Shown here piece by piece: positions 4,279 to 57,777 of a DNA stretch of 64,000 nt. The translations under genes and the position numbers were made by a program. Position 1 is the stretch's first letter; each line of letters starts with the position of its first letter. The notes beneath the pieces are model-generated. The model made no database searches. It saw only the letters and a list, made by a program, of their open reading frames with translations, and was not told the origin of the DNA. Where the stretch lies: the NCBI GenBank assembly GCA_022571365.1, contig JACZXZ010000008.1, forward strand, positions 2,262 through 66,261, in the 5' to 3' direction. The DNA comes from Pseudomonadota bacterium (lineage in GTDB: Bacteria > Pseudomonadota > Alphaproteobacteria > G022571365).

Positions 4279-4300
4279 GCTCCATCGCGCTCCGACCTTT

Positions 4301-4353
4301 TAGCAGGTTGTTTTACGTGGCCGCAAGCCGGTCGGGGCAAATCGCCACGTAGG
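4301..4353 (-). ncRNA. Candidate SAM-II (metA-type) riboswitch in the metZ leader
   Basis: Minus-strand RNA GUGGCGAUUUGCCCCGACCGGCUUGCGGCCACGUAAAACAACCUGCUAAAAGG. It has a GUGGC/GCCAC stem, the GAUUUGC and GCUUGC elements and a 3' GCUAAAAGG tail that sequesters an SD-like AAAGG, all typical of the alphaproteobacterial SAM-II aptamer. It lies about 100 nt upstream of metZ. Confidence 0.5.
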
Positions 4354-4420
4354 CCCAGGGTGTAGTCGCTCGGGCCCGCCCTGTCAAGGAGCCGGGAGGG
4401 CCGCCTTCATGGGTCGGGCG

Positions 4421-5664: not shown

Positions 5665-5738
5665 GCGGGTGTAGCTCAGTGGCAGAGTAGGAGCTTCCCA
5701 AGCTCAAGACGGGGGTTCGATTCCCCTCACCCGCTCCA
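5665..5738 (+). tRNA. tRNA-Gly (anticodon CCC)
   Basis: Cloverleaf: acceptor GCGGGTG/CACCCGC, D-arm GCTC-AGTGGCA-GAGT, anticodon stem-loop GGAGC-TTCCCAA-GCTCA (U33, anticodon CCC, A37), T-arm GGGGG-TTCGATT-CCCCT, encoded CCA. Confidence 0.85.
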
Positions 5739-15281: not shown

Positions 15282-15842
15282 GGGTTCTCAAGGGTTTTAA
15301 GGGCGCGCCCGCCGATCGCCAAGGGCGAAGGCCGGGGTATGCCGCGTTTTATACGCGCTGGCCACACATCCTGTTTGCGCGAGTGGGCAAAGCCGCTTCC
15401 AAGCTCGGCGGGCCGGGTCAAACGGCGCGCTCGACTCGGCCGATCCTGCCTGTGTTTTCCAGCCGGACGGTCAGACGCCGGAGCGCTTCTTCACCCTGGC
15501 CATGTAGGCGGCTGCGGCCGCAAGCGCCAGCCGGCGCGGCATGATCCGGCCAATCCAAGTCGTGAAGCGGGCCGTGGGCCCGACCACATGGACGTGCCGG
15601 CGTCCCAGGGCGGCCAGCGCTTCGTCGTCGGCGCCCGGAGCGGTTGCCGTGTCCGCTTGGTGGTTGGAGACGCGGCGTTTCTCGGGCCCGGGTTGTTTGA
15701 CAGGCGGGCGGGCGAGACGGGCTGTTGATAAAACCGCACCGCTGTGATTGGTTCTCGCGGCACACTCGCGTTAAGGAAGGGTGGCGGACGCCGCCGCCTG
15801 TTCTTATGCCAGCTTTCTTTGCCAAGGCCGGACGTGCCCGCC

Positions 15843-17045
15843 ATGGTCAACTTTCGAACCCTTGACGATCTTGATGTTGCGGGCCGGCGCGTGCTGGTGC
15901 GCGGCGATCTCAACCTGCCGATGAAGGATGGCAGGGTGGCCGACACCACGCGTATCGACCGGCACGCGCCGACGCTCGTGGAGCTCGCGGACAGGGGTGC
16001 CCGCGTCATCGTGCTGTCCCATTTCGGACGGCCCAAGGGCAGGGTCGTCCCGGCGCTGTCGCTGCGTCCCGTGGTGGCGCCCTTGAGCGCGGCGCTCGGA
16101 GGCCGCCCGGTCGCCTTCGCCGAGGACTGCGTCGGGCCCGCCGCGGAGCGGATCGCGGCCGGCCTCGGACAAGGCCACATCGCCCTCTTGGAGAACCTCC
16201 GCTTCCACCCCGGCGAGGAGGCCAATGACCCGGACTTCGCCGGGAAGCTCGCAAGCCTTGGCGAGATCTACGTGGACGACGCGTTTTCCTGCGCCCACCG
16301 CGCCCACGCCTCGGTCGAGGCCATCGCCCGTCTGTTGCCCGCCGCGGCGGGCCGTCTCATGCAGGCGGAGATCGAGGCCCTTGAGCGGGCGCTCGAGACA
16401 CCCGAGCGGCCGGTCGCGGCGCTCGTCGGTGGGGCCAAGGTGTCGACCAAGCTCGGCCTCTTGGGCGCCCTGGTCGAGAAGGTCGAGCTGCTGGTGATCG
16501 GCGGCGCCATGGCGAACACTTTTCTTCATGCCCTGGGCACGGAGGTCGGGCGGTCGCTGTGCGAGCGGGGCATGGCGGAAAAGGCGCGCGGCATCGTCGC
16601 CCGCGCCGAGGCCTCGGGCTGCACTCTCATGCTGCCTGGCGATGCCGTCGTCGCTTCCGAGCTCAAGGCCGGGGCGGCGAGCCGGACGGTGCCGCTGACC
16701 GCGGTACCCGCCGACGCCATGATCCTCGATATCGGCCCCAAGACCGCCGCCGAGGTGGCGGCGCGGCTCGAGGACTGCCGCACCCTGGTGTGGAACGGCC
16801 CCCTCGGCGCCTTCGAGACATCGCCGTTCGATGCCGGCACGACGGCGGTCGCCAAGGCCGTGGCCCGGCGGACCAAGGCCGGACGGCTGCTGTCCGTCGC
16901 CGGCGGCGGCGACACCGTGGCGGCGCTCGTCCATGCCGGGGTGGCCGACGACTTCAGCTATGTCTCGACCGCCGGCGGCGCCTTCCTCGCGTGGCTCGAA
17001 GGCAGGGAGCTGCCCGGCGTCGCGGCGCTGAGGGCGGCGCGGTGA
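15843..17045 (+). CDS. pgk: Phosphoglycerate kinase
   Basis: N-terminal [12 protein letters not shown], plus HFGRPKG and the hinge motifs, typical of Pgk. Confidence 0.9.
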
Positions 17046-17156
17046 ACGGATTTCCGGGGACCGGCCGGAGGCCGCCGCCAGGACCGCCGCATGGTAGCCG
17101 CCGCTCTGGACGGATTGCCACACAGCCCTGCGGGAGGAAACCTACCCCGCGCGGGT

Positions 17157-17903
17157 CTAGATGCGCTGGCCGCCCGGCAACGTCGTGAACCGCACCGGCA
17201 GAATACGCGTTTTCTTCACCCGTCCATCCGCCAGTTTCTCCACGAGGGTGAGTTGCTGCACGGCCAAGGGCGGACCGACGGGAATGACCAGCCTGCCGCC
17301 GGGCTTGAGCTGGTTGATGAGCGGTGGTGGTATGTGGTCCACCGCTTGGCGCATGATGACGGCGTCGAAGGGACCGCGGGCCTGCCAGCCAAAATAGCCA
17401 TCACCGACCCGCGTCTCGATGTTGTCATAGTCGAGACGAACGAGCCTTTCCATCGCCGTCTCCGCGACCGGTTCGATAAGTTCCACGATGTAGACGGTGT
17501 GCGCCAGCTCCGCCAGGACCGCCGCATGGTAGCCGCCGCCGATGCCGATCTCCAGGACCTTGTCGTCCGGGCCGATCCGGGCAAGATCGGTCATCAAGGC
17601 GACGATGTAGGGTTGGGAGACGGTCTGGCCGTGGCCGATGGGGAGCGGCTGGTTTAGGTAGGCGAGCGGTTCCAGCTTCTCGGGCACGAAGGCATGGCGG
17701 GGCACCTTGCCCATCACCTCCATGACCCGTGCGTCCAGGGTCTCCTTGCCGGTCACTGAGCTGGTGAGGCGCGCGTCGGCCTCGATTTCGGCCACCATAT
17801 ACTGGCGCAGGGCGGCGAAGTCGGCTTCGCTGCCGGACTCAGCCGGTCCGGCGAGCAGAACCAACATCACCGTCAAAAGGCAGGATCGTGTGGCGGTTGC
17901 CAT
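17157..17903 (-). CDS. pcm: Protein-L-isoaspartate O-methyltransferase (with signal peptide)
   Basis: 248 aa with the SAM-binding motifs VLEIGIGGGYHAAVLAE and GGRLVIPVG. The rest of the 949-aa reported ORF is antisense to the downstream plus-strand gene. Confidence 0.85.
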   Translation of the reverse strand: MATATRSCLLTVMLVLLAGPAESGSEADFAALRQYMVAEIEADARLTSSVTGKETLDARVMEVMGKVPRHAFVPEKLEPLAYLNQPLPIGHGQTVSQPYIVALMTDLARIGPDDKVLEIGIGGGYHAAVLAELAHTVYIVELIEPVAETAMERLVRLDYDNIETRVGDGYFGWQARGPFDAVIMRQAVDHIPPPLINQLKPGGRLVIPVGPPLAVQQLTLVEKLADGRVKKTRILPVRFTTLPGGQRI

Positions 17904-18104
17904 CGTCGTCACCTTCTCGATCCACGGTTTACGTCGAGTTCGGCCCTGAACGCAAGGACTCGCTCCAGAGGCGCTCCCGGCGGCGCCCCGCGGGACCGGC
18001 TCCGCCACGGCTGCGTCCCTCCCGTACCGCCCGGAATTTGGCGCGTCGGGGGCTTGGTGGTATCTATCCACTCGGCTCGCGCAGTTTTCCGTGGCGGGAA
18101 AGGG

Positions 18105-19331
18105 ATGACAAGAGGGCTCGCTTGGACCTTGGCCGCGCTGGCGGCGGTGCTCGTCGCTGCGGCGGCCGGCGTCGATCGGGCATCGGGTCAGCGCTTCGAA
18201 GTCGGCGCCGCCGACATGCCGCCGCCCTATGCCACGCCGAGCGCAACCAACCCGCCGCGACGGGTGTCGCGCCCGGCGGATGCGACGCTGATCTTGCCGG
18301 CGGGATTCACGGCCAACGTCTACGCCGAGGGGCTCAGCCACGCGCGCTGGATGGCGGTGGCCCCGAACGGCGACGTGTTCCTCGCCGAGCCGCGGGCCGG
18401 CGAGGTGACGCTTTTGCGCGACGCGGACGGCGACGGCCGCGCCGACTTCAAGACCACCTTCGCCAAGGGATTCAGTCAGCCCCACGGGCTCGCATTCCAC
18501 GGCGGCTATCTCTACGTCGCCGACACCAGGCGGGTCTGGCGCCTGCCCTACCGTCCCGGCCAGACCACCGCTGGGGGTCGGCCCGAGCCGGTGACCGCGG
18601 CCGGGGCCTTGGGCGCGGGGTCGGGCCACTGGACCCGCAACATCGCGATCAGCCCGGACGGCCGGCGCCTCTACGTCGCCATCGGCTCGAGCGGCAATAT
18701 CGGCGAGGAGCCTGAGCCGCGCGCCACGGTGCAGGTGTTTGATCTCGAGGGCGGGGGGCAGGAAACTTTCGCCGCGGGCTTGCGCAATCCCGTGGGAATC
18801 GCGTTCTATCCCGGCACCGACGACCTCTACGTGGCGGTCAACGAGCGGGATGGCCTCGGCGACGATCTGGTGCCCGACTACCTGACCCGTCTCGAGCCCG
18901 GCGGGTTCTACGGCTGGCCCTATGCCTACATCGGCCCCAACCCTCAGCCGGGCTACGCCGACCGGCGGCCGGACCTGGTGGCCCGAACCATCGTGCCCGA
19001 CGTGCTTTTCCAGGCCCATTCCGCGCCGCTGGGCTTGGTCTTTTACGACGCCGACCAATTTCCGGCCGAATACCTGGGCGACGCCTTCGTCGCCTTCCGT
19101 GGCTCCTGGAACTCGGCCAGGCCCACCGGCTACAAGGTGGTCCGCGTGCCCTTCGAGGACGGCCGGCCGGTCGGCTATTACGAGGATTTCGCCACCGGCT
19201 TCTGGATCGCGGGCGCCGCCACGGCCGAGGTTTGGGGGCGGCCGGTCGGCCTCGCCATCGCCGCCGACGGCAGCCTGCTTGTCGCCGACGACGTCGGCCA
19301 GACGATCTGGCGCATCAGCTACCGCCGCTAG
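18105..19331 (+). CDS. PQQ-dependent soluble sugar (glucose/sorbosone) dehydrogenase family protein
   Basis: Signal peptide, then beta-propeller motifs (GLSHARWMAVAPNGDVFLAE, HGLAFHGGYLYVAD, YGWPY, GRPVGLAIAADGSLLVADD) typical of the YliI/Asd family. Confidence 0.75.
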   Translation: MTRGLAWTLAALAAVLVAAAAGVDRASGQRFEVGAADMPPPYATPSATNPPRRVSRPADATLILPAGFTANVYAEGLSHARWMAVAPNGDVFLAEPRAGEVTLLRDADGDGRADFKTTFAKGFSQPHGLAFHGGYLYVADTRRVWRLPYRPGQTTAGGRPEPVTAAGALGAGSGHWTRNIAISPDGRRLYVAIGSSGNIGEEPEPRATVQVFDLEGGGQETFAAGLRNPVGIAFYPGTDDLYVAVNERDGLGDDLVPDYLTRLEPGGFYGWPYAYIGPNPQPGYADRRPDLVARTIVPDVLFQAHSAPLGLVFYDADQFPAEYLGDAFVAFRGSWNSARPTGYKVVRVPFEDGRPVGYYEDFATGFWIAGAATAEVWGRPVGLAIAADGSLLVADDVGQTIWRISYRR

Positions 19332-19481
19332 CCGGCCGGCGGCTTGCACGCCGCCGCGCCGCGGCTGTTTGAACCTCCGATGGCGGGCGAAGGGCGGCGC
19401 CGGCCTCGGGCGATCCCGCGTGAACGGCGGGGTGATCGTTGCTTGCTTGTATTGCGGCCCGAGACAGGCCAGATTGGAGCC

Positions 19482-20024
19482 ATGAGCGCCAAGCCCGCAG
19501 CCGGCCCCTCCGTCCGCAAGATTCCCGAAGGCGACACCCATGAACGGCTGGTGTGCCCGGATTGCGGCTATATCCAATACGATAACCCGAAGGTCGTGGT
19601 CGGTGCCGTCTGCACCTGGGAGGACCGATTCCTCCTGTGCCGCCGGGACATCTATCCGCGCCGCGGCTTCTGGACCCTGCCGGCCGGTTATCTGGAGCTC
19701 AACGAGTCGCCCGCCGACGGCGCGGTGCGCGAGACTTGGGAGGAAGCCTGCGCCCGCATCGACATCGACGCGCTGCTCGCGATCTACCACATCCCGCGGA
19801 TCAGCCAGGTGCAGTTGATCTACCGGGCGCGCCTGGCGTCGGCGGATATCGCCTCCGGTCCGGAAACCCGGGAGGTCGGGCTGTTCGAGTGGGAACAGAT
19901 TCCCTGGGACGAGATCGCGTTTCCCACGGTTCGCTGGGCGCTCCGCCATCACCGCGAGGTCGGCAATGGAGCCGACTTCGCGGTTCGCTCGAACCCGCCG
20001 GGCCAAAGCTCCGATTACTCCTAG
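19482..20024 (+). CDS. NUDIX hydrolase with N-terminal zinc ribbon
   Basis: The CPDCGYIQYDNPKVV zinc ribbon is followed by a Nudix box (GFWTLPAGYLELNESPADGAVRETWEEA). Confidence 0.75.
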   Translation: MSAKPAAGPSVRKIPEGDTHERLVCPDCGYIQYDNPKVVVGAVCTWEDRFLLCRRDIYPRRGFWTLPAGYLELNESPADGAVRETWEEACARIDIDALLAIYHIPRISQVQLIYRARLASADIASGPETREVGLFEWEQIPWDEIAFPTVRWALRHHREVGNGADFAVRSNPPGQSSDYS

Positions 20025-20084
20025 TTATTTACTCCTAGTTATTCCTAGGCGCGGTCTCTGGCCGGCCCCGGCCTTTCGCTCGTC

Positions 20085-21070
<986 letters not shown>

Positions 21071-36638: not shown

Positions 36639-36989
36639 CTTATATGGGCGCAGAGCAAAGCGTACCACAAAGTCTGGTGGCGCCGCCGGCGGCCAGATGG
36701 TAAAAAAAGGGCGTCAGGACGCTGGCTTGGAAAGCCCGCGTTAGGTGTCCGGGCGGGACACCCCCTGACGCCCCTGGAGCCGGCCCGGCCCCTGGCACCG
36801 AAAGCGTGCCGGGCATTGGACCGCTTGAGCAAGACGACGTCCCTGGCGAGCCGGTGCCTTGCCGGCGGGCGGCCCCACGCCCTTTGCAGGGCGCTGCCTT
36901 TCCGGACGACCGGTCCCTGGCGCCGACCCGGGCCTTCGGCTCGCGCGCCCCGCCTCCGAGGAAGCCTGGGCGCCGGGTCCAGGCAGCGC

Positions 36990-37235
36990 CACCCGCGAAC
37001 GGATTTTGCTGCCTCGCCGGGAAGACGGTTTCCCCGAAGGAAAATCCGTCGGCCCTTTGGCGCGGACCCCGAGCCTCTGGCCGGGTGCCGGTGCTTCCGA
37101 GGAAGTACCGACCGCCAAGCCCGGGCAGCACCTCCCGCGAACGGGAGTTTCTGCTTTTGCGGGGCCGATGCTTTTCCCGAAGGAGAAGCCGTCGGCCCTG
37201 CGGCCAAGCCCGGCGCGTGCCTGAGACGCGGCCTT
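36990..37235. repeat. Two degenerate tandem ~120-bp repeat units, each containing a REP-like hairpin motif (GCTTTTCC-CGAA-GGARAAGC-CGTCGGCC), in a 760-bp non-coding GC-rich region
   Basis: Unit A ...gacggtttccccgaaggaaaatccgtcggccc... Unit B ...gatgcttttcccgaaggagaagccgtcggccc... A third copy of the motif lies inside sucA at 48891-48921. Confidence 0.65.
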
Positions 37236-37888
37236 CCGTCCAGCGGCCCGTCGGTCTCGCGACCAACGGATCGCCGGTGGCGAACATCGCGGTCTCCGCG
37301 GAAACCGCTCTGTCCCGGAGCTTTGCTTCCTTCGCCTGACGCCCCGAACCTCGAAAGGCCCGCAGCATCCTGCTCGGGAGCGCATCGCTCCGACGCTCTC
37401 GCATGCCGGGTATTATCCTAAACCGTTCAAGACAAGATGCAATAAAAAATGGAATAGAAATTCATTTTTCTGTGTATAACTTCATTAATATTACACATAT
37501 ACCTCACAGTTTATTCATAGATTTATACACAATATGTGACTTCAAAAGTAAAACCCGGGGGTCGACTCAGTATGTAGTAGGGTCGAGCGGCGGCACATAC
37601 ATGTGCGCTTTCGCGATCCCGATCGCAGCGATCACCGTCCGATTCCTGGGACGCGACCCGACATCCCGGGGCGCGGAAAGGGCCTCGCATTGTCATGTCC
37701 GCCGACGCGCGTCTCCAGGCCTGGACAGGCCCTTGGCCGGCGCCAGGCGTCATGAAGTTGACACCCATAGGTCGCCGGTCTACACCAATCGAGCGGGGCA
37801 AGATCGCTCGATCGATTCCGGGGCTTTGCGCGGGGCTTTGCACGGGAGATTTACACGGGAGACAGGCTTTGCGCGAGAGACATTGGTC

Positions 37889-38281
37889 ATGACGGCGGAG
37901 AACCGCCCGCTTTCGCCCCACCTCCAGATCTACCGGCCGCAGCTCACCTCGGTGCTTTCGATTCTGCACCGCCTCACCGGCATCGCGCTGGCGGCCGGCA
38001 CGCTGCTTCTGGTGTGGTGGCTGGTCGCCGTGGCCGCCGGCCCGGCGGCCTTCGAGACGGTGCAGGGATTCATAGGCTCATGGTTCGGCCGCGCTCTCCT
38101 CTTGGGCTGGTCCTACGCCTTGTTCTATCACCTGGCGAACGGCATTCGGCACCTGGCCTGGGACGCCGGCTGGGGCTTTGAGCTCAAGACGGTCTACCTC
38201 ACGGGCTGGATGGTGATCTGGGCCTCGGTCGCCCTCACCCTGCTGGCCTGGATCTTGGGCTACAGCATGAGGGGAGGGTGA
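37889..38281 (+). CDS. sdhC: Succinate dehydrogenase cytochrome b556 subunit
   Basis: 130 aa. The N-terminal RPLSPHLQIYRPQLTSVLSILHRLTG matches the conserved SdhC heme-ligand region. Confidence 0.85.
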   Translation: MTAENRPLSPHLQIYRPQLTSVLSILHRLTGIALAAGTLLLVWWLVAVAAGPAAFETVQGFIGSWFGRALLLGWSYALFYHLANGIRHLAWDAGWGFELKTVYLTGWMVIWASVALTLLAWILGYSMRGG

Positions 38282-48669: not shown

Positions 48670-51546
<2,877 letters not shown>

Positions 51547-51624: not shown

Positions 51625-52962
51625 ATGGTCATGACGGCTGAGATCACGGTGCCCGCCCTCGGCGAGTCGATCACGGAGGCGACGGTGGGCCGATGGCTCA
51701 AGTCGGTCGGCGACGCCGTCGATGTCGACGAGCCGGTGGTCGAGCTCGAAACCGACAAGGTGACCGTGGAGGTCAATGCGCCGCTGGCCGGCACGCTCGG
51801 CGAAATCCTTGTGGGAGAGGGCGCCAATGTCGAGATCGGGGCCGTGCTCGGCGTTATCGCCGGCGGCGGCGCGGCCGCGGCCAAGGAAAAGCGGCGCAAG
51901 CCTGCGGCGCCCGGGCCGGAGGCGATGGCCGTGCAGGCCGCCCGGCCCTCCGCGCCGGAAGCCGCCCGGCCCTCCGCGCCGGAAGCTCCCCGGCCCCCCG
52001 CGCCGCAAGCCGCCCGGCCTGCGGTGTCCAGGTCTGAGGCGCCGCTGTCGTCGGCGGTCAGGAAGCTGGTCGAGGAAAACCGGCTGGACCCGGTCGCCAT
52101 TCCCGCCACCGGCAAGGGCGGGCGGCTCACCAAGGGCGACGTGCTTTCCTTTCTCGAGCGTAGCGGCGCCCGGATTCAAGCCGTTCCGCCCGAGCCCGAG
52201 CCCGCCCTCGAGCTCCCGGCGCCCGAGCCCGCCCTCGAGCCCCCGGCGCCCGAGCCCGCCGTCCGGAGGGAGGAGCGGGTGCGCATGACGCGCTTGCGAA
52301 AACGCATCGCCGAGCGGCTCAAGGAAGCCCAGAACACGGCGGTCATGCTCACCACCTTCAACGAGGTGGACATGAGCAAGGTGATGGCGGTCCGCGCCCG
52401 GTGTCGGGAGGAGTTTGAGAAGAAGCACGGGGTCCGGCTCGGCTTCATGTCGTTTTTCCTCAAGGCGTCGATCGTCGCGCTCAAGGAAATCCCGGCGGTC
52501 AACGCCCAGATCGACGGCGACGACATCGTGTTCAAGAACTATTACGACATCGGCGTCGCCGTGGGCACGCCCCATGGTTTGGTGGTGCCGGTGGTGCGGG
52601 ACGCCGACAGGCTCAGCTTCGCCGAGATCGAGGTCAAGATCACCGAGCTCGGCCGCAAGGCGCGCGACGGCAAGCTTTCCATGGAGGATCTCACCGGCGG
52701 CACTTTCACCATCTCCAACGGCGGCGTCTATGGCTCGCTCCTGTCGACGCCGATTCTGAATCCGCCGCAATCGGGCATCCTGGGCATGCACAAGATTCAG
52801 CCGCGCCCGGCGGCGGTCGACGACAAGATCGAGATCCGGCCGATGATGTACCTGGCGCTCAGCTACGATCACCGCATCGTCGACGGGCGCGAGGCGGTGA
52901 CGTTCTTGGTGCGGCTCAAGGCGTGCATCGAAGACCCGGAGCGCATCCTCCTGGACATGTAG
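51625..52962 (+). CDS. sucB: Dihydrolipoamide succinyltransferase E2 component
   Basis: Lipoyl domain (ETDKVTVEV), Pro/Ala-rich linkers with PSAPEA repeats, and the catalytic domain ending [11 protein letters not shown]. Confidence 0.9.
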
Positions 52963-53165
52963 CTGTGCTCGGCCGCTCCAGGCCCGAGCCACGGGCCGGC
53001 GCGGCTTGAGAGCCTATTTGAGGGATCCGGCCCGGTCGCGCGCCCGCACCGGGAGGCGCCCGCCCGCTGTTCTTAAAACCAACCTGTAAGATGGTGGCGG
53101 CCGTCCCGTCCCTATGACAGGGGGGAAGACCCGACGACTACCCAGAGCCAGAGCCCTTTGTCTTT

Positions 53166-53194
53166 GATTCTATTCTTGGCACGGCCTCCGCCTC
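53166..53194. repeat. Downstream copy of the 29-bp direct repeat flanking the AT-rich Hint-domain cassette (partner at 53713-53741)
   Basis: gattctattcttggcacggcctccgcctc versus gattctattcttggcacggcgtccggctc (27/29 identical). On the minus strand both encode AVPRIES. Confidence 0.8.
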
Positions 53195-53248
53195 GCTGGA
53201 CTTCGTCGCCCCGGGCGAGCCGCTGTTTTCAACCTCCTCCGCCCTTAA

Positions 53249-53290
53249 TTATGCACCAAAAACACTTCCTTCTCATCCTTATCAGAAGAT
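53249..53290 (-). repeat. Truncated duplicate of the last 13 codons plus stop of the Hint-domain gene (SDKDEKEVFLVHN*)
   Basis: Minus-strand tctgataaggatgagaaggaagtgtttttggtgcataattaa duplicates 53296-53337, which encodes SDEDEKEVFLVHN then KIQ*. Confidence 0.8.
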
Positions 53291-53291
53291 C

Positions 53292-54500
53292 TTATTGTAT
53301 CTTATTGTGCACCAAAAACACTTCCTTCTCATCCTCATCAGAAACAAAATAATTATGTGTTCCGTTGACTGTTAGGTTGAAGACTTGTACTGCTTTCTCT
53401 ACTTTCTTTATACTTTTGATTTTGATGTGTGAGTTTCCAAGTACTTTGTCTCCAACTTTTAGCTCCGCTGCTTCTTTCCAAACATCATTACCAACAGCAA
53501 ATGGATGCGTACCAGTAACTTTAAGATTATCGTTAAGCAGCAAATATGAAGCTACTTCTATAGTAAATAATCTTGTTACTTTGCTGTTAACTTTTTTATT
53601 TGTATTAAAATCAAAGCTTTGTACTTCTTCTCCTTCTTCAATTTCTGCAATAGGCTTGAAGGTGTTGTCTGCCATTAAGACTTTGGTGTCAGCAGTAAAG
53701 CAACCTGGTGCCGATTCTATTCTTGGCACGGCGTCCGGCTCCTCCACCACCGGAGGCTCCTTGATGAGATCCGTGATCGGCGGGAAGAACGCACCAGTCA
53801 CGCCAGACTCATCATAGAATTTCCCCCAAGTACGCTGTTCCCACAGCGTAGTCGGGAGGGGAATGGTTGTTGGATAGAGCCCTTCATAAATCTCCCGCGC
53901 GATGTCGGGCGGCGCCGACGCCGCCGGCGTCGGCGCCGCGTCGGGCGCGGCCACGGTGGAGGCAAGCCCCGGGGTGTCGATGTTCACCGTCACGCCCTCG
54001 AGGTTGGAGATTGCGAGCGCGCCCGCGCGCAGGATCACGGTCGTCGCCCCGTCCGGCGCCACGAACAAGTCGAAGATCGTGCCGCGGACGCCGATGATGG
54101 CGACCGGCGTCCTGATCTCGTAGGACGCCGACGCCAGCGAGCCCGAGACGAACCGGAAGACGCCGACGGTCGCCGACATCACGACCTTGCTCACATTGGG
54201 ATCGGGATCGAACACGAAGGTATCGAGGACCAGCCGCGATTCCGGGCCGATCGACATCGTCGTCTCGTCCAGGAACAGGAGCTGGGTCGAGCTCTCCACT
54301 TCGGTCTCGATGGCTTCGTTGTGGAACAGCCGGTCGCCGATCACCAGCGTTCTCTCCTGCTCGGCCAGCGTGCCATGGACCAGGTTCACCACGGCCGCGG
54401 TGACGCCGATGCTCTCCTGCGCGGCGGCGCTCGCCGTCCAACCCGCGAGTATGAGGCCCGCGGCAAGCGCATATCGGACGGTCATGATCAGAACTCCCAT
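53292..54500 (-). CDS. Secreted FecR-like domain protein with a C-terminal Hint / bacterial-intein-like (BIL) domain
   Basis: Signal peptide (MTVRYALAAGLILAGWTASAAAQE), a FecR-type beta region (VAIIGVRGTIFDLF), a Pro/Ala/Thr linker, then a 133-aa Hint domain. The Hint domain begins at Cys (CFTADTKVLMADN), has block B TGTHPF (TxxH) and ends VFLVHN, then KIQ-stop. Its coding segment (~53249-53700) is AT-rich and Lys/Asn/Ile-rich, unlike the rest of the gene. Confidence 0.8.
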   Translation of the reverse strand: MGVLIMTVRYALAAGLILAGWTASAAAQESIGVTAAVVNLVHGTLAEQERTLVIGDRLFHNEAIETEVESSTQLLFLDETTMSIGPESRLVLDTFVFDPDPNVSKVVMSATVGVFRFVSGSLASASYEIRTPVAIIGVRGTIFDLFVAPDGATTVILRAGALAISNLEGVTVNIDTPGLASTVAAPDAAPTPAASAPPDIAREIYEGLYPTTIPLPTTLWEQRTWGKFYDESGVTGAFFPPITDLIKEPPVVEEPDAVPRIESAPGCFTADTKVLMADNTFKPIAEIEEGEEVQSFDFNTNKKVNSKVTRLFTIEVASYLLLNDNLKVTGTHPFAVGNDVWKEAAELKVGDKVLGNSHIKIKSIKKVEKAVQVFNLTVNGTHNYFVSDEDEKEVFLVHNKIQ

Positions 54501-55604
54501 GCGACGCTCACCCCGAAGGAGTGGTTCTTATATCTCTTTTGGGGATCGTTTGAGTAGTTGTTCTCGAAGAAATAGCGCAAGACCAGGGTCACCTCCGGCC
54601 GCAGAAACTCCGAAACCACGACTTTGGCGCCCGGGGCGTACCGCCTGTCCTCTCGGTCCTCCACCTCATCCGGGTCGTGACCTATGTAGTCCCGGTACCA
54701 TAGAACTAACTCGGGACCAGCCAGGACATTGTCGTAAACCGGGTAAAGGTACTCGGCCTGGGCGCTGATCTGGTGATAGCGATTGCGATACTTACCGGTA
54801 TCCCCACCACCCCTGGCGCCATTGAAGATGTAACGGGGCATTGTTATGGACAGCACATCTTGGGTGGCGGCGGCGGCCAGGTTGGTCCATTGGAACCTCG
54901 GGGCCACCTCGAATACCACCGCGTCGCGTCCGGTTCTCTCGGTGTTGTAGTCCTCGAGGGCAAGCCGGAGGTCGAGCGTCCGGAGAATGCCGGGGCCGAG
55001 CTTCTCGAAGTTGACGACGACGCCGGCCGAATAGAACAGGAACTCGCGGTCAAGCGCCGCGTAGGTCAGGGCGACAGCGGGGCGGACCTGCCACCGATCG
55101 GGCAGCAGGAGAAGCGGTCCCGATTGCGCGCTGACCAGGTACAGATCGGCCGCCTGGAAAGCTACATGGGCGTCCCCGTACAGCTGCGCGGTGGTCCGGA
55201 TCCGCCGGTCGCCGAGCACGCGCTCGTCCCGCACGATTATCGCCGCCGACCCGGAGTGATCGCCAAAGGTGCCGACTTCCTCCTCGCGGTGCGGCGCGTT
55301 GGTATCGTACCGGTAGCCGAGGATGGCCACATACGCCGTCCGGCTGGGCTCCAACAGCCTGCGAATGCGCGCCGCCTCGGCCAAGGCCGTCGCGTTCTCC
55401 GGGTCCTGCAGCAAAAGCCGCTCGTAGGTGGCGAGCGCCTTCTCCAGCTCGCCGCGCTCCTCGGCAAGCCGGGCGTAAAGCAGATTGAGCTCCACGTCGC
55501 TCGGGTTTTGCAGGAGCCGCTGGAAGACGGATTCGATGTCCTCTGCGCCCTGGGCCGAGCCGATCAGCAAGCCAAATGCCAGAAAGACGGCGGCTGCGCG
55601 CATC
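54488..55604 (-). CDS. TPR-containing beta-barrel outer membrane protein (DUF560/Slam-like architecture), operonic with the FecR-Hint gene
   Basis: Signal peptide MRAAAVFLAFGLLIGSAQG, ~70 aa of TPR-like helices (LYARLAEERGELEKALATYERLLLQDPENATALAEAA), then ~280 aa of alternating amphipathic strands ending in the OMP signature ...FGVSVAWEF. The stop overlaps the downstream gene start. Confidence 0.6.
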
Positions 55605-55854
55605 AAAATCAAAGGCCTTCCCCCCTGTTGACTGTTTGACTGTCGCGCTCGCCCGGAGGCGCGAGCCTGTCCGACCTTTGCCCGCGGACGCACGAAACCC
55701 AGACGATATCGTCTGGGATGGGTCCGGCGCAAGAAAATCATTCCGCAAGAAAATTTATGGCGCGTAAACGATTGACGGCGCGTAAGCCCAAGGTCAAGGG
55801 CTACCGGCGCCATTAATCGGAATTAATACAATTAATACAATAACATAATACAAA

Positions 55855-57777
55855 TTAGGAAGCCTGTAGGGCGTGTGGATCGCGCCGCTCAGCCGCCCGG
55901 CGGCGGGTGCGGCGGCGGATGCGGCGGCGGGGTGGCAAACGCGGCTCTTGGTCGAACAGCTCGGCAAGCTTCTCCATCAGGGTGCCGCCGAGCTGGTCGG
56001 CGTCGACGATGGTCACCGCCCGTTGATAATAGCGGGTGACATCGTGGCCGATGCCGATGGCGACGAGCTCGATTGGCGAGTACGTCTCGATCCACGCGAT
56101 GACCTCGCGCAGATGGCGCTCCAGGTAGTTGCCGGGATTGACTGACAGGGTCGAGTCGTCGACCGGCGCGCCGTCCGAGATCACCATGAGGATGCGCCGC
56201 TCCTCGGGCCGTTCCAACAGGCGCTGGTGCGCCCACAGGAGCGCTTCGCCGTCGATGTTCTCCTTGAGGATTCCATCGCGCAGCATGAGACCCATGCGCT
56301 TGCGCGCGCGCCGCCACGGCGCGTCGGCGGCCTTGTAGACGATATGACGCAGGTCGTTGAGGCGTCCTGGATTCGGTGGCTTGCCCGCGGCCAGCCAGCG
56401 CTCGCGCGACTGGCCACCCTTCCAGGTGCGGGTGGTGAAGCCCAGAATCTCCACCTTGACGCCGCAGCGCTCCAGCGTGCGGGCGAGGATGTCGGCGCTC
56501 ATCGCCGCCACCGTGATCGGCCGGCCGCGCATCGAGCCGGAGTTGTCGATCAACAGCGTAACCACCGTGTCGCGGAACTCGATTTCCTTTTCGCGCTTGT
56601 AGGACAGCGGATAGACCGGGTTGACCACGACCCGGGCGAGCCGGCCGCTGTCTAGCAGCCCCTCCTCCAGATTGAACTCCCAGGCCCGCGACTGTTTGGC
56701 CAACAGACGCCGCTGCAGGCGGTTGGCGAGCCGGCCGATCACGCCCTGCAGGTGGGCGAGCTGCTGGTCGAGCTGGTGGCGCAGGCGGGACAGCTCCTGG
56801 GGGTCGCACAGTTCGTCGGCGTCGATGATCTCGTCGAACTCGGTGGTGAAAGCGTGATGGAACAGCTGGTTGGGCTCTGCCCCAAGGCTGGCCTCGGGTC
56901 TCAAGGGGCGGCCCGGCTGGGTCAGGGTGTCGTCGGCCGCGTCGGGCGCCAGCTGGGTCTCCAAATCCTCGCCGTCGCCGCCGTCCTCGCCGGTCGCCTC
57001 CAACGCCTCGGCGGTCGGCATGGCCTCGGCGTCCTCGTCCTCGCCGTCGCCGTCTTCGTCGAGGTCTTCGCCACCCGTTTGGCCCTCGCCGGGGCTTTCC
57101 ACATCATCCCGGTCGGTCTTCGCCGAGTCCTCGTCGCCGAGCTCGAGATCGTGGATCAACCGCCGCACCGCCCGGGCATAGGCGTCCTGGTCGTCGATGT
57201 GTTTTTTCAGGTCGGCTAGGTCCTTGCCGGCGCGGGATTCGAGAATCGGGCGCCAGAGATTCACCATCCGACGCGCGCTCTCGGGCGGCGATATGCCGAC
57301 GAGGCATTCGCGGGTCAGGAGGCCGATCACCTCGGCCAGCGGCGCGTCCTCGCGCTCCGTGATTTGGGCGTAGTCCCGGTTGCGGCAGCGCTCGTCGACC
57401 GCGGCCGCGAGATTCAAGGCGACGCCGGCCATGCGCCGGGCGCCCAGAGCCTCGCACCGGACCTGTTCGACCGCATGGAAGATCGCCCGGGCCGTGGCGC
57501 CAGCCGGCAGGCCTTTGGTGTGCAGCTCGGCGTCGTGATGGCGCAGCTTAAGCGCCATGGAATCGGCTTCCCCGCGGAGCTGGGAGACCTCGCCCACAGT
57601 CGGATCCCTGGACGGCGGCGGCAGGCGCGCCTCGGTGCCGACGAGCCCCGCTGGATCGGGCGTGAACGCGACGGTCACGTCGTCGCGCCCGGCGATCGCC
57701 CGCATCGCCGCTGCGGTAACGCGCCGGAAGCGCTCGACCGGGCTCTCGGCCTCGGCCGCGATCTGTCCGTTAAACAA
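55855..57777 (-). CDS. cobT: Cobaltochelatase CobT subunit-like protein (vWA domain)
   Basis: ~640 aa with an acidic central region and a C-terminal vWA/MIDAS motif ([11 protein letters not shown]...[10 protein letters not shown]), typical of aerobic CobT. Confidence 0.8.

Follow-up and report, generated by a model that had tools for sequence, protein, structure and literature searches.

The 64,000-nt stretch analyzed here (GCA_022571365.1, contig JACZXZ010000008.1; hereafter the window, whose numbering is used for all positions) carries, between sucB and cobT, a gene for an outer-membrane protein (OMP), followed on the same strand by a gene for a secreted protein with a FecR domain and a C-terminal Hint domain. 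The OMP-FecR pair, conserved in relatives, is no accessory insertion; only the Hint domain is foreign and recently inserted. In the reading that we favor, to which we give a probability of about one half, the two genes form a conserved envelope accessory pair of the CHASE2 type, with a foreign and probably self-cleaving bacterial intein-like (BIL) domain as a recent addition to the FecR gene.

Two open reading frames (ORFs) of the minus strand, 54488..55813 and 53292..54500, lie between sucB (51625..52962, plus strand) and cobT (55855..57777, minus strand). The OMP gene itself occupies 54488..55603 (minus strand) and encodes 371 residues, while the FecR-Hint gene (53292..54500, minus strand) encodes 402 residues from MGVLIM, or 397 from MTVRY at 54485. 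The stop codon of the OMP gene overlaps or abuts the start of the FecR-Hint gene, as it lies within ATGGGAGTTCTGATCATG, a segment that also contains both possible FecR starts, which makes translational coupling of the two genes likely. That these are overlapping and likely co-transcribed ORFs between sucB and cobT had been anticipated in the original prediction, and the overlap or abutment and the common strand are in agreement with it.

The pair has the composition and the setting of a resident of this position. GC is 0.635 in the OMP gene and 0.656 in the FecR part of its partner, for a window average of 0.669. Among the related loci and contigs compared (L followed by three digits; the homologous proteins compared are designated by P and four digits), the order cobS-cobT-OMP-FecR is identical in L001, L002, and L038, the OMP of L038 being 74% identical to that of the window. 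The convergence of the FecR gene on sucB that is seen in the window recurs in L001 and L002. An earlier proposal took the pair for an accessory insertion at the position of lpdA; native GC and synteny maintained down to 74% OMP identity speak against it, and the lpdA signature C.N.GC.PSK is absent from the window and from sister contigs. To judge from this motif search, lpdA is located elsewhere in this lineage.

The neighborhood of the OMP gene was surveyed in GTDB, with one genome per species, by a locus search with a nine-sequence OMP alignment. An OMP homologue is encoded at 23 alphaproteobacterial species loci, with a FecR gene adjacent to it in 22. In nine of these loci one or two FecR copies lie directly downstream on the same strand, and in 13 the FecR gene is divergent and upstream; L004 and L005 have two further FecR genes upstream besides the downstream ones. 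Two or three FecR paralogues are found around the single OMP gene in L004, L005, and L007-L010. Taken with the overlap in the window, this adjacency sustains the earlier proposal that the OMP and the FecR protein are functionally coupled. A third recurrent partner, which that proposal overlooked, is a CHASE2 adenylate/guanylate cyclase: a protein of ~740 residues with CHASE2 and Guanylate_cyc domains is encoded next to the pair in L003-L005 and L013-L018 (at least nine genomes), which points to signaling, not to secretion alone.

FecR and TPR proteins have been found near CHASE2 sensors in several other lineages. In Campylobacterota, the clusters of CHASE2 cyclases include a FecR-domain protein and a TPR protein (PMC9239204), CHASE2 kinases of Burkholderia and P. 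aeruginosa cluster with COG4254 LysM-FecR proteins (PMC5192318), and the S. meliloti protein SMc02177 is a FecR-domain protein and a Clr target studied alongside cyclases (PMC5498481). In one S. meliloti record, a FecR-domain gene and a gene for a CHASE2 cyclase homologue converge. A plasmid of Ensifer encodes a barrel-less, stand-alone TPR protein between the cyclase and the FecR gene, and the TPR part of the OMP profile recognizes this protein with an E-value of 2.8e-5. In L037 (Ensifer sp. PDNC004 plasmid NZ_CP070354.1), a cluster of CHASE2 cyclase, small TPR protein, and FecR protein is followed by NHLP bacteriocin export genes and a gene for a cyclic-nucleotide-binding protein. The accessory clusters of CHASE2 sensors (cyaD1/SMc02177 of S. 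meliloti, the cyclic AMP (cAMP) cluster of Campylobacterota, the BiofilmReg operon of Burkholderia) share with the pair a secreted FecR protein (PF04773) and a TPR module encoded together with it, both of which are present in the window; they differ in that the TPR module of the window forms one protein with a 14-strand outer-membrane barrel, the FecR protein bears a Hint domain, and no CHASE2 gene lies nearby. NsrA, another outer-membrane barrel, acts upstream of the CHASE2 cyclases of S. meliloti, which require it to perceive signals (PMC7529298).

The FecR-Hint protein itself has an AxA-type signal peptide (..SAAA/QE) and no Cys lipobox. Its FecR domain (53952..54413, minus strand) matches Pfam PF04773 with an E-value of 3.7e-9, above the cut-off, and its Hint domain matches PT-HINT (PF07591) with an E-value of 5e-12 and 46.7 bits against a cut-off of 27.7, so that the protein was rightly described beforehand as a signal peptide, a FecR domain, and a C-terminal Hint domain. 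The structural model shows a confident β-rich domain with strands over residues 25-178, a disordered linker (residues 207-259, pLDDT ~30), and a confident Hint domain. Foldseek relates the FecR domain to the C-terminal cell-surface signaling domain of PupR (6ovk) and to a FecR-like anti-sigma factor (4m0h), and the resemblance to the PupR domain supports the pair as a signaling arm.

According to the reading favored here, the OMP and the FecR protein would be an old, co-translated envelope pair, and they would serve a CHASE2-type sensing pathway as its accessory arm in the outer membrane and periplasm, since relatives place the pair beside an inner-membrane CHASE2 cyclase. The TPR arm of the OMP may dock the FecR protein, which in turn may relay a cue to the CHASE2 domain. 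Several observations weigh against this assignment. Neither the 64-kb window nor the sister contigs contain a CHASE2 homologue, and about half of the related loci are also devoid of a CHASE2 gene within 6 kb. NsrA is a protein of ~1200 residues with its barrel in the 600-1200 region, in contrast with the 371 residues of the OMP, to which no match was found in a plasmid collection by tblastn. More generally, the interaction and signaling role of the OMP family is predicted from gene neighborhoods and by analogy.

The most serious competitor of the signaling assignment, although we consider it clearly less probable, is a secretion system like Slam, or type XI, in which the TPR-barrel OMP would move the FecR protein, with or without its Hint domain, across the outer membrane for display or release. 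The architecture of the OMP is that of Slam proteins, namely a signal peptide, an N-terminal periplasmic TPR region, and a 14-strand barrel, and a dedicated partner gene adjoins it (PMC8406197). The TPR region (55352..55537, minus strand; approximately residues 23-84) matches Pfam TPR_19 and TPR_14 and is modeled as helices over residues 23-84, and the barrel region (54491..55342, minus strand) comprises residues 88-371; the AlphaFold2 model consists of four helices, i.e., two TPRs, followed by 14 strands, with the sequence ending in WEF. The layout foreseen for this protein (signal peptide, about two TPRs, barrel, WEF end) is thus corroborated. The strict pairing of the OMP with one to three adjacent FecR genes is also reminiscent of translocator/cargo loci, the low-complexity C-terminal tails of the FecR partners could thread a barrel, and secretion and signaling are not mutually exclusive.

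Membership of the DUF560 family, which was part of the original prediction, does not follow from this likeness. The OMP of the window has no match to PF04575 (SlipAM) at E ≤ 0.1 and so does not reach the gathering score. When 71 members of its family were scanned against Pfam and NCBIfam, seven matched TPR_Slam (PF24575), three SlipAM/DUF560, six BBP2_2, and 11 OMP_b-brl. The three PF04575 matches are all weak and below the cut-off, with a best E-value of 2.7e-4, and the NCBIfam models for BcsC, PgaA, and PEP-CTERM OMPs match the family equally weakly. TPR_Slam is non-discriminating, because generic TPR proteins match it too. The few weak matches to PF04575 or PF24575 nevertheless count on the side of secretion. 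A word-indexed protein search with the OMP returned eight relatives with the single sequence and 13 with a profile, with no DUF560 proteins among them, and the PDB contains no Slam structure for fold comparison. The architecture therefore matches Slam, but membership of DUF560 is not demonstrated. A profile search of 1.84 billion representative sequences yielded 574 relatives, so that the family, although unnamed, is real; scanning its long members for fusions revealed none with FecR or CHASE2.

The partner protein does not resemble a Slam substrate either. Known Slam cargo is marked by a C-terminal 8-strand barrel (PMC8406197), and neither such a TbpB-like barrel (TbpBBD) nor a lipobox was found in the FecR-Hint protein by Pfam, sequence, or model, which disfavors the notion, also advanced earlier, that it is a Slam-type cargo. 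The pair has no TonB or TonB-dependent receptor gene as a neighbor, and in other clusters the place of the OMP is filled by a barrel-less, stand-alone TPR protein.

The second component of the favored reading concerns the Hint domain (53301..53702, minus strand), which extends from Cys1 to the His-Asn pair and the +1 Lys and was delimited by Pfam, PDB and Foldseek matches, composition, and motifs. Motif alignment of its subfamily reveals conservation of Cys1, of VTGTHPF (block B), of VFNLTV.G.HNY, and of FLVHN-K. The +1 residue is a Lys, conserved across the subfamily, and no Cys, Ser, or Thr nucleophile occupies that position; in the window only three residues (KIQ) follow His-Asn before the stop. 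Sequence matches in the PDB are 8w20 and 2lwy, and Foldseek aligns the domain with BIL2 (6y75) and the BIL domain of C. thermocellum (2lwy) at TM-scores of 0.77-0.85 (0.85 for 2lwy). The Hint fold, the N-terminal Cys, the TxxH of block B, the C-terminal His-Asn, and the missing +1 nucleophile are all features of type-A BIL domains, and on these grounds the domain is classed as a type-A BIL-like autoprocessing domain. In type-A BIL domains cleavage dominates over splicing (PMC4031507), and BIL2 can transfer its upstream domain to lysine, forming Lys isopeptide conjugates (PMC8616854). A variable secreted host protein is a further trait that the domain has in common with type-A BIL and PT-HINT domains such as those of C. 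thermocellum and Tetrahymena (PMC4031507); it differs from them by its location at the extreme C-terminus, three residues from the end, by its periplasmic FecR host, and by a presence/absence polymorphism with intact scars. A canonical intein was rejected, given that only KIQ follows His-Asn, that the displaced tail is out of frame, and that the +1 nucleophile is missing.

That this domain was inserted recently is apparent from its composition. Between 53200 and 53700 GC is down to 0.34-0.40, lower than anywhere else in the 64-kb window, a feature that had been overlooked; the 402 Hint-coding nt have a GC of 0.352 and a GC at third codon positions (GC3) of 0.30, as against a GC3 of 0.86 in the FecR part. 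The insertion is bounded by a 29-nt direct repeat, whose upstream copy (53713..53741) codes for EPDAVPRIES and forms the 5' edge of the cassette, and whose downstream copy (53166..53194) forms its 3' edge, as seen by alignment with the exact empty site of L002; the copies are 93% identical, with a spacing of 547. The downstream copy continues as AVPRIESKTKGSGSG* (53138..53185, minus strand), a ghost of the native C-terminus that is detached from the gene, and the Hint-less proteins P0008 and P0010 share that tail. P0001-P0003, which are 83-87% identical to the FecR-Hint protein, carry the Hint domain, and P0004-P0010, 76-95% identical over the FecR part, are devoid of it and end in ..AVPRIES and a short tail, e.g., ETKGNGGSG or KTKGSGGD. 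At the 3' end of the Hint sequence lies a 56-bp tandem duplication (53248..53343; 40-nt copies at 53248-53287 and 53304-53343, 95% identical), whose downstream copy reads ..FLVHN*; removal of a single base would turn this into ..HNKGGGG*, as members of this Hint subfamily usually end. Among the Hint-bearing contigs, identity is 97.8-100% for the Hint DNA and 95-98% for the FecR domain.

No donor was identified: searches with the Hint protein of JGI metagenome and viral contigs returned only relatives of 29-31% identity, a search of phage genomes with the Hint DNA returned none, and at the DNA level no match elsewhere exceeds 70%. Outside this locus the nearest Hint proteins, 54-71% identical, stand at the ends of unrelated secreted proteins, where Cys1 is usually preceded by a Gly-rich, often poly-Gly, linker and His-Asn followed as HNKGGG, and where the domains sometimes occur in tandem. 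A tandem-Hint protein, P0013, is encoded by L035 (GCA_013330865.1 DUHP01000055.1), a contig labeled Candidatus Woesearchaeota; with 55.7% GC and bacterial-type genes (heptosyltransferase, TctA) this label is doubtful, and the contig is probably misbinned.

The 3' part of the FecR gene seems prone to change beyond this cassette. The disordered linker (53709..53867, minus strand) is hypervariable and ends in the conserved AVPRIES, and it varies among alleles that share 95-98% identity in the FecR domain. Linker and tail together are hypervariable at 53709-53870 in the window and at 10580-10828 in L002. The AVPRIES island contains the rare codons AGA and ATA, and GC3 drops to 0.53 even in a Hint-less allele. 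The pattern suggests repeated recombination of the 3' end of the FecR gene with foreign DNA.

We propose that an AT-rich cassette of ~0.5 kb joined the FecR gene in frame just after AVPRIES, with duplication of 29 nt, and that this insertion would have severed the native eight-residue tail, leaving it as the ghost downstream. After export, the Hint domain would form a thioester at Cys1 and, judging from its motifs, most likely cleave itself off, leaving a FecR protein nearly identical to the product of Hint-less alleles; the insertion may have been tolerated because cleavage would restore a near-native FecR protein. Were the two 29-nt copies to recombine, the cassette would be lost and the gene would regain its native tail. 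Two facts stand against this account. In L001 the same Hint cassette has another 3' flank, and the ghost tail is missing, so that a single insertion with duplication does not explain every Hint allele. Moreover, a second lineage (P0012, P0014, and P0015) has a GC-normal FecR-Hint fusion, with a Hint domain 46-48% identical to that of the window; such a fusion can persist, and the Hint domain may thus be functional, not merely tolerated. The P0014 fusion (L034, 4888-6951) lies directly after a DDE_3 transposase gene, with no barrel OMP gene within 5 kb.

The Hint domain could also be a functional gain, which we regard as rather improbable. The Cys1 thioester would then be resolved by an amine or another nucleophile, covalently tying the C-terminus of the FecR protein to peptidoglycan, lipid, or the OMP, as in Hedgehog or Tetrahymena BIL2, and converting a soluble sensor into an anchored one. 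The catalytic residues are all intact and the +1 Lys is conserved across the subfamily, BIL2, a protein that makes Lys isopeptide conjugates (PMC8616854), is among the closest structures, and two lineages have FecR-Hint fusions, in one case with ameliorated composition. Set against this, the same population has many alleles that lack the Hint in otherwise near-identical genes, the cassette is unameliorated with only three residues after His-Asn, and no acceptor is known. A more elaborate version, which we hold to be still more doubtful, would make the Hint domain a portable, self-ligating tag, passed among distant lineages, that ties the soluble FecR sensor covalently by its C-terminus to the envelope or the barrel, with the 29-nt repeats allowing a population to switch, by excision, between an anchored and a free form.

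A polymorphic toxin remnant is very improbable. PT-HINT is the best Pfam match of the domain and normally precedes a C-terminal toxin, and the displaced 3' module shares the AVPRIES island conserved between hypervariable segments, as though the ghost tail were an orphan module for recombinational switching; yet the locus has no toxin domain, the stop comes three codons after His-Asn, the subfamily likewise ends in HNKGGG or HNKY, and neither an immunity-like ORF downstream nor a PADLOC match was found, for which reasons a polymorphic toxin locus was rejected. An assembly chimera, with the AT-rich segment made of misjoined foreign reads, would account for the abrupt drop of GC inside one ORF and was discarded as next to impossible, since the reading frame is kept across the junction, the contigs L032 and L033 of other samples (ERZ650194 and ERZ23499587) show the same junctions, 56-bp duplication, and ghost tail as the window, and the 3' flank differs in another contig with the Hint.

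CHASE2 is a widespread sensor domain for which, to our knowledge, no ligand has been reported, and we know of no characterization of its recurrent FecR and TPR neighbors. The family of TPR and 14-strand-barrel OMPs (~570 representative clusters), almost always paired with FecR, is a candidate for the means by which CHASE2 pathways would reach the cell surface. The Hint cassette, with its foreign composition, junction repeats, ghost terminus, and empty-site alleles in the same population, offers a natural example of domain gain in progress, on which the spread of an intein-like domain without a homing endonuclease, and the reasons for which it is tolerated, can be tested.

The start of the OMP gene and the region preceding it were also re-examined. 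The gene is taken to start at the ATG at 55603, preceded by the ribosome-binding site GGGGGAAGG, and not at 55813, the start of the listed ORF of 441 residues, because all eight close OMP homologues start with MRAAAV and because indels of 16, 8, and 1 bp upstream of 55603 break the longer frame in an alignment of five related contigs across the cobT-OMP spacer. The same alignment shows the intergenic region (55604..55854, minus strand; 52% GC) to be conserved, with short polymorphic tandem duplications and a palindrome of 19+19 nt. The four short tandem duplications reported earlier within 55620-55850 are all present in the sequence; they had been thought to fit an accessory insertion and instead appear to be polymorphic, slippage-type indels, small in size, in an otherwise conserved spacer. 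The imperfect palindrome (55689-55726), whose 10+10 core (cccagacgat/atcgtctggg) is perfect, falls between the stop of cobT and the start of the OMP gene and could be a cobT terminator or an operator; in L038 the palindrome has a compensatory change (cccggacgat/atcgtccggg). An Rfam scan gave no family match at the intergenic region or the locus, and a promoter/terminator scan scored no better than shuffled sequence.

Other features were noted outside the locus. L002 has, at 15367-20417 and upstream of sucA, two sucC-sucD pairs with an ACT-domain gene between them. In the window, the 26-nt motif TTCCCCGAAGGAAAATCCGTCGGCCC occurs three times (37030-37055, 37173-37198, and 48895-48920), with none expected by chance; two copies belong to an imperfect tandem repeat of ~142 nt (36971-37204) in an AT-poorer spacer upstream of an sdhC-like ORF (37403..38281), and the third is inside the 5' coding region of sucA. 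A tRNA gene lies at 5665-5735 (plus strand), and a SAM_alpha riboswitch (66 bits) at 4280-4358 (minus strand) fits an alphaproteobacterial origin.

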